DNA from: an uncultured Bacillales bacterium | Lineage (GTDB): Bacteria; Bacillota_I; Bacilli_A; RF39; UBA660 | Length of the DNA stretch: 64,000 bases | Reading direction: 5' to 3' | Assembly: GCA_902477075.1 (NCBI GenBank) | Contig: CABSFU010000001.1 | Coordinates: 15,881 to 79,880 of the forward strand | In this document: in pieces, positions 12,718-17,142 of the stretch | How the letters are laid out: each line of letters starts with the position of its first letter | Numbering within the stretch: the stretch's first letter is position 1 | The notes under the pieces: model-generated | Database searches by the model: none | The model's input: only the letters and a program-made list of their open reading frames with translations | Told to the model about the DNA's origin: nothing | Translations under genes and position numbers: made by a program

Positions 12718-13980
12718 TTATATTTCATTATAATCTATTAATTCTATCTTAGCGCCAACATTTTGTAATTTTTCAATAATATTTTCATATCCCCTTAAAA
12801 CATGTCCAATAGATGAAACCGTTGTTGTACCAGTTGCTACTAAAGCAGCTAATACCATACAGGCTCCAGCTCTTAAATCGGTTGCTTCTACTTCGGCTCC
12901 ATGTAATTCTCTTTTTCCATGAATTTCAATTTTCTGACCATTTATTTTAATATCGGCACCCATTTGATTTAAATAAGGGACATTCTTAAAACGATTTTCG
13001 TAGATTGTTTCCTCTAAAATAGAAACTCCACATGCTTGTGTAAGAAGAGTAGTCATTGGTTGTTGCAAATCGGTTGGAAATCCAGGATAACCTAGTGTTT
13101 TAATATTAACACTTTTAGGGTTTGAACAAGAAGACACCAACACATAATCATTTCCTACTTCTAAAGGAATATTCATCTCTTTTAATTTTTCAATTAGAGA
13201 TTCAACATGATTTGGAATCATATTAGAAATTTTTAAATTTTTTCCAATTAAAGCACCGGCTATGATATAAGTACCGGCCTCAATACGATCAGGGATTACT
13301 TCTGTAAATCCCCCTGTTAATTTTTCTACTCCCTCTACTGTTATAACACTGGTTCCTGCTCCTCTTATCTTCGCACCTAAATTATTTAAAAATGTTGCTA
13401 CACTAACAATTTCTGGTTCCTTTGCAGCATTGTATATTTTTGTTTTTCCACTCGCTTTAGTAGCTACTAACATGGTATTAATTGTCGCTCCTACACTTGG
13501 CATATCAAGTGCAATATCTGTGCCAGTTAATTTTTCAGCTGTAATAGTATATTTGTTGTCTTTTTCTATAATAGTTGCTCCTAAAGAATGAAATGCTTTT
13601 AAAGTTTGATCAATTGGACGTGCTCCAATAGAACATCCACCTGGAAAATACATTTCTACCTTTTTGTATTTTCCAAGTAAAGCGGCCATAAAATAATAAG
13701 AAGCTCTTAATTTTTTTGATATATTTTCTGGTATTTCTCTATTTTGAATGGAAGAAGAGTCTATTTTTATTTGACTATCTTTCCAGTCTACTTTTGCCCC
13801 TAAATACTCTAATATTTCATTTAAAGCATCTATATCTGAAATATTTGGAATATTATCAATTGTAACAATTCCATCCGATAAAATAGAAGCAGGAATTAAT
13901 GCCACAGCACTATTTTTTGCTCCACTTATTTTTATTTCACCTTGTAGTAAATGTTTTCCTTCAATTCTTAGTTGTTTCAT
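12718..13980 (-). CDS. murA: UDP-N-acetylglucosamine 1-carboxyvinyltransferase
   Basis: MKQLRIEGKHLLQGEIKISGAKNSAV, with the catalytic Cys in PGGCSIGARPID. AAGGAG lies 5 nt before the ATG at 13980. Confidence 0.96.
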   Translation of the reverse strand: MKQLRIEGKHLLQGEIKISGAKNSAVALIPASILSDGIVTIDNIPNISDIDALNEILEYLGAKVDWKDSQIKIDSSSIQNREIPENISKKLRASYYFMAALLGKYKKVEMYFPGGCSIGARPIDQTLKAFHSLGATIIEKDNKYTITAEKLTGTDIALDMPSVGATINTMLVATKASGKTKIYNAAKEPEIVSVATFLNNLGAKIRGAGTSVITVEGVEKLTGGFTEVIPDRIEAGTYIIAGALIGKNLKISNMIPNHVESLIEKLKEMNIPLEVGNDYVLVSSCSNPKSVNIKTLGYPGFPTDLQQPMTTLLTQACGVSILEETIYENRFKNVPYLNQMGADIKINGQKIEIHGKRELHGAEVEATDLRAGACMVLAALVATGTTTVSSIGHVLRGYENIIEKLQNVGAKIELIDYNEI

Positions 13981-13991
13981 AAATACTCCTT

Positions 13992-14810
13992 TCATGACAG
14001 TATTTGTAGTTTATGGCGAACTGCTTCTTTGATTGCTTTTTCACCGCTTTTGATTATTTTTCTCGGATCATAAATATCTGGATTTTGATTTAAGTACTCT
14101 TTTATAGCTTTTGTCCAAGCAATTTGTAATTCTGTATTAATATTTACTTTTGTTATTCCAGATTCAATAATTTATTTTAATTCTTCGTCGCCAATTCCTG
14201 TTCCTCCGTGTAAAACAAGAGGAATATTTAAAATGTTTTGCAATTTTTTTATTTTTTCTACATCAATTTTAGGTTTACCAGTATATAGCCCGTGAACATT
14301 TCCAACAGCAGGCGCTAAAGAATCTATTTTTGTTTCATTTACAAACTCACATGCATCTTCTATATCAACGTACACTGGTTCTTTTGATTTTCCTATATAA
14401 CCAATTTCTGCTTCTACTGTTACATTATTTTCATGAGCTATCAAAACGATTTGTTTTGTTAATTCTATATTTGTTTTTAAATCATACTTAGATGCATCAA
14501 TCATTACCGATGTAAATCCTGCTTCAATAGCTCTTTTACAAGCATCTACACTACCATGATCTAAATGAATTGCTACTGCCGTTTTGATATTTAAATCTGT
14601 AATTAAACTTTTAATTAGTGAAACTACTACATGATAACCACCCATATATTCTATAGCACTTTCACTAACGCCTAAAATAACTGGTTTGTTTAAAAAAGCA
14701 CACTCTTCTAAAATAAATCTTGCCCATTCAAGATTATTGATATTAAAATGAGCTACAGCATAATGATTTGTTAAGGCTTTTTGTAACATTTCTTTTGTGT
14801 TTGTTATCAT
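13992..14810 (-). pseudogene. fba: class II fructose-1,6-bisphosphate aldolase interrupted by one in-frame TAA (14172-14174)
   Basis: The N-terminal 212 codons (HLDHG, EAEIG, GNVHG, LVLHGGTG) end at ...GDEELK-TAA. The same frame then continues IIESGITKVNINTELQIAWTKAIKEYLNQNPDIYDPRKIIKSGEKAIKEAVRHKLQILS-TGA. That stretch is the conserved aldolase C-terminus. Confidence 0.85.
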
Positions 14811-14859
14811 GTTATCACCAGTATTATTATATTATTTTTTCCTTAAAAAGGCAATAAAT

Positions 14860-15393
14860 CTATTTTATTATGCAACAGATACCAATAATAATTAAAACAA
14901 GACCTCCTATGAATGTCGATGTTTTTCCAATCCAATTATTAATTTTTGTGCCTAAATATAGTCCTAAATAAGTAAATAAAAAACTAAATATTGAAAATAA
15001 AAAAGCTGCCAATATTGGTTTATTATAGATTGTATTTAACCCGATACCAACCGAAAAACTATCAATAGATACAGCAAAACCAAATATAAAAAATTCACTG
15101 ATTTTTAAAAGTGTAATTTGTCTATCTTCTTTAAAGCTTTCTATTATCATTTGAATACCAATTATTAATAGCACAAGGAAAACAACAATAGATGGTTTTA
15201 CTGGTAATAAATATAATACCGTCTTACCTACATTCATTCCTAAAATTGGCATAAAAAAATGATAGACACCAACAATAATAGACAAAAGAATTCTACGACT
15301 CTTTTCTATGTTTAGGGTCCCGTAGGCAAGGGATAAAGAGAAGGCATCCATACTAAGACTAACTGCTATTAATAAAACAAATAAGAATGACAT
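14860..15393 (-). CDS. MntP/YtaF-family membrane protein (Mn efflux or sporulation membrane protein)
   Basis: MSFLFVLLIAVSLSMDAFSLSLAYG, with a second repeat at AVSIDSFSVGIG. GGAGG lies 7 nt before the ATG at 15393. It is 40 nt downstream of spoIIR. Confidence 0.8.
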   Translation of the reverse strand: MSFLFVLLIAVSLSMDAFSLSLAYGTLNIEKSRRILLSIIVGVYHFFMPILGMNVGKTVLYLLPVKPSIVVFLVLLIIGIQMIIESFKEDRQITLLKISEFFIFGFAVSIDSFSVGIGLNTIYNKPILAAFLFSIFSFLFTYLGLYLGTKINNWIGKTSTFIGGLVLIIIGICCIIK

Positions 15394-15999: not shown

Positions 16000-17061
16000 T
16001 TAACCTACAACTTCTAAAAGAATTCTTGTATATATGGATGTTGTCAATTTCATTGAATTATATAAATAATAGTTTAATTGATACTCCGTATCTGGTTTTA
16101 CTTCAAATATATCTACAATACTAGACTGTGTCCAAGTAGTTGCTGCAGGAGCATATACAATTGACGCCTCTGAAGGGCCAAATTTATAATTATATTGTCC
16201 TGGTGATGATGGATAACTTTGATAGGTTGCTGTTATTTTAACATATGAAACAGATGGATCAAAACTAACTGTACCATTGCTATTATATATTATTTTATTT
16301 CCCTTTTTATAAAGTAAAACAAGAGGAATTTTTTGATAAGAATTTACCACTGAATATTCTTTTCCATCTATTCTTAATAGCATATAATTTTCTTTTAGAG
16401 ACACCAAACTAGATAAATTTTCTATGTTTGTATTTGTTTTATCTAATTCGCTTTGTAAAGCATAGTTATTTAAATTACTTTGTAATTCTTCGATATTACT
16501 TTTGATACTTGTTATTTCATTTGTATTATTTGTTATTTTTGTATCTAATTCTGTAACCTTTGCATCTACTAAGTTATTTACTTCATCTTTAGAATATACA
16601 TTACTAACATTTCCTGTTCCATTATCTAACATTGCTACATATTTATTTGTTAAAGCATCAAATCCTATGATACAATTTCCAGTTTTTCTTTCTCCTACGA
16701 TAATTCCACTATTATAGTTTTTATATACATAATATTTATCATTTGAGATACAAACACTGACATTTCCTTCTTTATCTAAATAGAGTTTTCCTTCTCCATC
16801 TATGGTTCCTCTATAATCTAGACTTTCTCCTTTTATGGTACTTCCTTTGTGTTCCTTATCAAATAAAAATTCATAGACTCCATCATTTTCTATCGCATAC
16901 AAATTTGCGGATTCTACTAGTCCCTCTACACTAGACGCAAGTGCTTTCTTTTTACTTTCTTCTATTACATTTGTTATCATTGGTATTGTGATTAAGGTAA
17001 TTACTGATAATATAACAATTACAGCTAATAATTCTATTAATGTAAATCCTTTTTTCTTCAT
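16000..17061 (-). CDS. prepilin-type N-terminal cleavage/methylation protein with a long coiled-coil and beta-rich C-terminal extension
   Basis: MKKKG/FTLIELLAVIVILSV is a class III signal with Glu at +5. A pilin-like globular part of about 150 aa is followed by VYSKDEVNNLVDAKVTELDTKITNNTNEITSIKSNIEELQSNL and a beta-rich module of about 130 aa. GGAGG precedes the ATG at 17061. Confidence 0.8.
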   Translation of the reverse strand: MKKKGFTLIELLAVIVILSVITLITIPMITNVIEESKKKALASSVEGLVESANLYAIENDGVYEFLFDKEHKGSTIKGESLDYRGTIDGEGKLYLDKEGNVSVCISNDKYYVYKNYNSGIIVGERKTGNCIIGFDALTNKYVAMLDNGTGNVSNVYSKDEVNNLVDAKVTELDTKITNNTNEITSIKSNIEELQSNLNNYALQSELDKTNTNIENLSSLVSLKENYMLLRIDGKEYSVVNSYQKIPLVLLYKKGNKIIYNSNGTVSFDPSVSYVKITATYQSYPSSPGQYNYKFGPSEASIVYAPAATTWTQSSIVDIFEVKPDTEYQLNYYLYNSMKLTTSIYTRILLEVVG

Positions 17062-17142
17062 AAAGCCTCCTGTTTGTAACTGTATGGTTACTTTATACAA
17101 TAATATTATAACTAAATGGTTACAATGTCAATAGGTGATTTT

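Follow-up and report, generated by a model that had tools for sequence, protein, structure and literature searches.

The window analyzed here is a 64,000-nucleotide stretch of DNA from an uncultured Bacillales bacterium of the human gut. Its minus strand carries fba, a gene for a class II fructose-bisphosphate aldolase, between an mntP-family gene and murA (Table 1). The fba frame runs for 212 codons (...LVLHGGTGIGDEELK) and is then interrupted by TAA. Past this stop the same frame continues for another 59 codons (IIESGITKVNINTELQ...YDPRK...HKLQILS), up to a TGA.

Table 1. Positions of fba, its parts and its neighbors in the window.
Feature	Position	Strand	Remarks
fba (class II aldolase gene)	14810..13992	minus	ATG at 14810
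fba codons 1-212, portion still translated	14175..14810	minus	Carries the HLDH, VHG and LHGG metal-binding motifs
In-frame TAA, fba codon 213	14172..14174	minus	CAA (Gln) in all intact conspecific alleles examined
fba codons 214-272, now untranslated	13995..14171	minus	Strand beta-8 (KVNINTE), YDPR motif, C-terminal helices
Natural TGA stop of fba	13992..13994	minus	
Promoter-like site TTGCCT-17-TATAAT, upstream of fba	14826..14854	minus	10/12 consensus match
mntP-family gene, upstream of fba	14860..15393	minus	One flank of the conserved mntP-fba-murA order
murA	12718..13980	minus	11 nt downstream of fba; Shine-Dalgarno sequence (SD) AAAGGAG; ATG at 13980

The gap between fba and murA contains no terminator. 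The two genes therefore probably form one shared operon. In a mechanical list of open reading frames, murA starts at an ATG that overlaps the fba stop (ATGA, window 13978-13995). The start given in Table 1 is more likely to be the real one, because it is preceded by AAAGGAG and because gene calls on related contigs agree with it (420 aa). In Bacillus subtilis, fbaA adjoins murAB in the same way that fba adjoins murA in the window.

Family membership and the lost part of the barrel

Both sides of the stop belong to the same protein family. The Pfam profile PF01116 matches the N-terminal 212 aa at profile positions 2-217 (E 3.6e-72) and the tail, searched as 58 aa out of its 59 codons, at positions 220-271 (E 2.2e-12). 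The two matches are colinear and in the same frame. When the frame is read through the TAA, a single match covers profile positions 2-271 (E 8.4e-91, 304.8 bits). Among NCBIfam models, the ketose-bisphosphate aldolase subfamily TIGR00167 is matched with 293 bits, above its cut-off of 215.6. The closest is the FBA equivalog TIGR01859, with a score of 320.7, slightly under its cut-off of 343. The interruption had been predicted as an in-frame TAA that involves no frameshift, and this description is borne out, with 59 further codons that match the family.

In the tail there is neither an in-frame start codon (ATG, GTG or TTG) nor an SD, which agrees with the earlier statement that the downstream part lacks a start codon of its own. 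A split protein with a separately made tail is ruled out for this reason. A chance open frame behind the stop is ruled out as well, because the tail is identical to that of intact alleles in other strains. In one respect the locus looks as a nonsense pseudogene should: orthologues have a sense codon where the stop lies, and no restart follows it. It does not offer the uninterrupted frame of a complete (beta/alpha)8 barrel, which is broken by TAA at codon 213.

Class II aldolases bind their metal through histidine motifs (HLDH, G-x-VHG and LHGG) and their substrate through NINT(E/D) and DPR. The corresponding residues H82, D84, H85, H173, H201, N223-E227 and D248-R250 do not vary across an alignment of 15 sequences, and the window encodes all of them. 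Two of these groups, N223-E227 and D248-R250, fall past the stop. In solved class II aldolases, such as those of E. coli and Giardia, the NINTE and YDPR residues bind the substrate phosphates.

An AlphaFold2 prediction for the intact allele (pLDDT 91.9, pTM 0.90) allows the effect of the stop on the protein to be judged. In this model, residue 213 lies inside the helix formed by residues 208-217. Truncation removes the rest of this helix, the strand 219-223 and the helices 225-242 and 249-271. Of the columns that are invariant in the family alignment, 22 fall in the lost part, among them those of N223-I-N-T-E227 and Y247-D-P-R250. The model thus upholds the expectation that truncation would cost the product the end of the TIM barrel. 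Together with the conserved motifs, the model indicates that the 212-aa product is almost certainly unable to close the (beta/alpha)8 barrel and is inactive.

The closest solved relatives are the aldolases of Bacillus anthracis (PDB 3Q94, E 1.6e-78) and Staphylococcus aureus (PDB 4TO8, E 5e-76). These class IIb enzymes of Firmicutes match over the full length and have HLDH, VHG, LHGG, the NINTE strand and DPR in common with fba read through its stop. Unlike them, the gene in the window is broken at codon 213, has a shorter loop and scores below the TIGR01859 cut-off. Its metabolic setting also differs from classical glycolysis: phosphofructokinase, phosphoglucose isomerase and fructose-bisphosphatase are undetected.

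The shorter loop is the mobile catalytic loop (window 14360-14400, codons about 137-150), which has 5-6 residues fewer than in all other relatives. Its sequence is GKSKEP in both this species and the sister species, and GG-x-ED in relatives. A Glu is present in GKSKEP, but it is shifted by one position in the alignment. The short-loop gene is nevertheless under purifying selection.

Ancestral codon and age of the stop

Intact copies of fba from the same species are plentiful. The 90%-identity cluster of this species in a large protein collection has 56 member sequences, and the 13 listed full-length variants (271-272 aa) all have Gln213, in the context ...DEELKQIIESG.... At the DNA level, codon 213 is CAA in 21 of 21 conspecific copies checked, which were extracted in three sets of 10, 7 and 4. 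In the other genera the residue is Q, K, T or E. A stop at codon 213 is absent from every other allele and every other genus compared.

Since all intact conspecific copies have CAA, the mutation is best read as a C-to-T transition that turned CAA (Gln213) into TAA. The original prediction, which drew on Bacillus, had the stop replace a lysine by a change from AAA to TAA. This was wrong, as every intact conspecific allele examined has CAA and encodes glutamine. The comparison of the same codon in related strains, which had been proposed as a check, gave TAA in one clone and CAA in all other copies checked.

Codons 214-272 are unchanged relative to L047, which is the nearest intact allele of the first set compared. 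The TAA haplotype differs from L047 by four synonymous changes and has K155E as its one private amino-acid replacement. On these comparisons the nonsense event is evidently young, since the tail has no differences from L047 and K155E is the sole private amino-acid change. A second substitution, T30A, was considered as decay particular to the TAA allele and was rejected, because several intact alleles also have A30.

Within the species, the dN/dS of intact fba alleles is 0.08-0.26 (about 0.1). Against the sister species it is 0.14, at a dS of about 0.5. In the matching comparison, murA gives 0.00-0.04. These ratios indicate that intact fba alleles are under purifying selection, so that the enzyme appears useful where it is kept. 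Loss of fba may therefore be costly, not neutral.

Possible assembly error, mixed population or read-through

Three explanations had been offered for the stop: a sequencing or assembly error, a very recent nonsense mutation, and tolerated or programmed read-through. The recent mutation is now favored, error is unlikely, and the evidence is opposed to read-through.

Sequence records list the 212-aa product for several contigs, and the TAA allele is identical in three assemblies. These are the 177-kb contig of the window, a 99.9-kb SPAdes contig (ERZ1749120, cov 60.5; L039) and a 32.5-kb scaffold (ERZ28622187, sample SAMN03283279). The SPAdes contig is 99.53% identical to the window, and all 35 differences, over 21,988 bp, fall inside one 200-bp patch. 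The remaining 21.8 kb are identical. The three assemblies agree over 22 kb apart from this repeat patch and therefore represent one clone, for which at least three assemblies exist. They may come from a single sample, in which case they are not independent biological replicates. An initial reading of L039 as a second, independent strain with the TAA allele was withdrawn, because its differences are confined to the patch.

The patch lies at window 16556-16756, within a prepilin-type gene on the minus strand (16000-17100). It encodes a pilin-family N-terminal module that has more than 40 paralogous copies genome-wide, with 80-99% identity. The difference between the assemblies is probably one of repeat resolution; it could reflect gene conversion among paralogues or a repeat-resolution artefact.

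If the stop were an error, the true base would be C, the codon CAA and the gene intact. The allele is known from one clone, the three assemblies may re-use the same reads, and the base sits in an A/T-rich stretch (AAAATAAATT). Against this, assemblies of differing contiguity, probably made by different pipelines and in one case at about 60x, all give the same base. The change is a substitution and not a homopolymer indel, and a consensus substitution error is unlikely to have arisen at such depth and to recur in all three assemblies. In a scan of the whole genome, no second housekeeping gene with a clean in-frame stop turned up, so errors of this type are not a general trait of the assembly. 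Finally, the private K155E and the four synonymous differences from L047 mark the sequence as a distinct allele, not a corrupted copy of a known one. An error is therefore improbable.

The consensus could also hide a mixed population, in which TAA and CAA coexist in the sampled gut community and the assembly reports the more abundant base. In populations that live with a host, dispensable genes commonly carry nonsense polymorphisms. The pilin-family patch is not the same in all assemblies of this clone, which makes heterogeneity possible, but repeat resolution is the simpler reading of a module with so many copies. CAA appears in no assembly of the TAA clone. In any case, a mixed population would be a variant of the real-mutation explanation and not an alternative to it. 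We regard it as very improbable. A search of JGI metagenomes with a 41-nt pattern, with N at the variable base, matched neither allele and is uninformative.

Read-through would keep the aldolase functional if UAA were decoded by near-cognate tRNAs, such as tRNA-Gln (UUG) or tRNA-Lys (UUU). A low basal level of read-through exists in all bacteria. The 59 downstream codons are unaltered, and purifying selection on the intact alleles suggests that some activity may be wanted. An unaltered tail, however, is equally expected of a very young pseudogene. Nor do relatives share the stop: at this position all other alleles and genera have a sense codon, whereas programmed read-through would be expected to leave a stop that relatives share.

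The decoding apparatus of the genome argues against read-through as well. No suppressor tRNA occurs among the 34 tRNAs found by aragorn, and no anticodon is UUA. The genome encodes two release factors with a PCRF domain, and both bacterial release factors of this kind read UAA. Many loci have an SD and a further gene start behind a TAA, which shows TAA to be the normal terminator of many ordinary genes. Taken with these observations, two scans of the whole genome for stops with open stretches of the same frame before and after them rule out genome-wide recoding of TAA. In these scans, fba alone among housekeeping genes is split by a stop that no restart follows. Tolerated read-through of this one codon is very improbable.

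Programmed read-through and stop reassignment resemble the present case in that a conserved frame follows the in-frame stop. In reassignment as known from Mycoplasmatales, which belong to the same class, TGA is read as Trp. Here the codon is TAA and the stop is found in no relative. In contrast to recoding systems, the genome has no suppressor tRNA, has both release factors and uses TAA to terminate ordinary genes.

The other cases from the scans are debris of mobile elements and one uracil-DNA glycosylase (UDG)-like frame outside the window. The latter (G000:C1:117498, plus strand, about 37.6 kb past the window end; G000 is the genome of the window) resembles a family-4 UDG (...HPSPLN...) and is interrupted by a single TGA in frame, which 110 aa precede and 84 aa follow. 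This frame is possibly a second pseudogene. At G000:C2:128236, the C-terminal half of an ABC-ATPase lies directly in frame past the stop of a 685-aa recombinase-like ORF; a mobile element thus seems to have cut the ABC-ATPase gene. At G000:C21:10150, a recombinase-like frame is split by TAG. Both cases fit decayed mobile elements.

Metabolic setting and loss across the family

The genome has 1.29 Mb in 41 contigs, is 94% complete and has about 27% GC. On the profile searches made, fba appears to be the only fructose-bisphosphate aldolase gene found in it. The earlier suggestion to look for other aldolases can be answered in part. No second PF01116 gene was found by profile search. The class I aldolase profile PF00274 has no match in the genome, but the control genomes were silent as well, so that this search is uninformative. 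A search for the DeoC/LacD family (PF01791), for which controls do match, gave deoC as the sole match.

Several other enzymes of sugar phosphate metabolism were not found, either in this genome or in the three congeners (G001-G003); as the genome is a 94%-complete MAG, these are to be read as "not found" and not as proven absent. They are phosphofructokinase, 1-phosphofructokinase above the family cut-off, GlpX and the class III fructose-bisphosphatase (FBPase_2), phosphoglucose isomerase, transaldolase and GlmS. Control genomes, and genomes from other families of the class, did give matches in the same searches. Triose-phosphate isomerase and transketolase are present in the genome, and the searches therefore work on these genomes. 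With phosphofructokinase, phosphoglucose isomerase and the fructose-bisphosphatases undetected, the aldolase has no recognizable supplier or consumer of fructose-1,6-bisphosphate.

Across the family, 9 of 24 genomes have fba, with all copies intact, and 15 lack it. In all nine, fba adjoins murA, and mntP lies on the opposite side where the contig reaches that far. This shared mntP-fba-murA order is therefore ancestral, and the state of the three congeners is a deletion. The congeners have no fba. Their flanks align to the window on both sides of the gene, with 36-70 bp in place of its 832 bp, and they keep the TTGCCT...TATAAT promoter, there directly in front of murA. The gene has been lost repeatedly, though it appears useful where kept. 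It had been called a central glycolytic gene, a description that does not apply here: phosphofructokinase, phosphoglucose isomerase and fructose-bisphosphatase are undetected, three congeners have deleted fba, and most family genomes are without it.

The evidence makes it likely that the window carries a real, recent loss-of-function allele, Gln213 to stop, in one clone. Such an allele can be called a young pseudogene or, what amounts to the same, an intraspecific loss-of-function polymorphism. On this reading, a change from CAA to TAA struck the sole fba of one clone of a gut Bacilli species with a reduced genome, so that translation ends after residue 212. The product lacks half of helix alpha-7, strand beta-8 with NINTE, the arginine of YDPR and both C-terminal helices. 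On the same reading, the clone survives because aldolase is dispensable in this lineage: the classical producers and consumers of fructose-1,6-bisphosphate are undetected, the ORF has been deleted in sister species, and fba is missing from most of the family's genera. The nonsense allele is then the first step of a loss that the congeners have finished by deletion.

Two other accounts would give the aldolase a continuing role. Either the clone still needs the enzyme and obtains it through a trickle of read-through, or the aldolase, which has a shortened catalytic loop in a lineage with no phosphofructokinase or fructose-bisphosphatase found, is non-glycolytic and its loss is polymorphic in the species. 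In the second case it might act on sedoheptulose-bisphosphate or another ketose-bisphosphate, beside transketolase and where no transaldolase was found. Even when the two accounts are combined, the chance that one of them is correct seems small.

A recent loss-of-function mutation is an event of a kind that is already known, namely ordinary gene loss, here as a nonsense pseudogene in a MAG. Loss of glycolytic genes, including the gene for FBA, has been described in reduced-genome gut lineages (PMC12306168), as has genome reduction in uncultured gut Bacilli (PMC6784871). The fba locus shares with such reductive-evolution pseudogenes a single inactivating point mutation and full deletion in related species, and the genome is likewise small (1.29 Mb, 27% GC) and has many pathway gaps. 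It differs from the described losses in two respects. Intact, nonsense and clean-deletion states are visible at one locus, and purifying selection still acts on the intact fba copies of the species.

The locus can therefore serve as a clean snapshot of reductive evolution, with an intact gene, a one-base knockout and a precise excision at the same place. In the three sister species, the excision has left the fba promoter to be re-used for murA. For annotators, the consequence is that fba in the window should be labeled as a pseudogene. The locus also raises the question of what role a conserved class II aldolase has in a family without detectable phosphofructokinase, phosphoglucose isomerase and fructose-bisphosphatase.

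Phosphofructokinase was found in 3 of the 24 family genomes and not in the other 21. The three genomes with the phosphofructokinase-like gene have no class II fba. Phosphoglucose isomerase, GlpX or class III fructose-bisphosphatase, transaldolase and GlmS are undetected in five genomes (G000-G003 and G009). Triose-phosphate isomerase, transketolase and deoC are kept.
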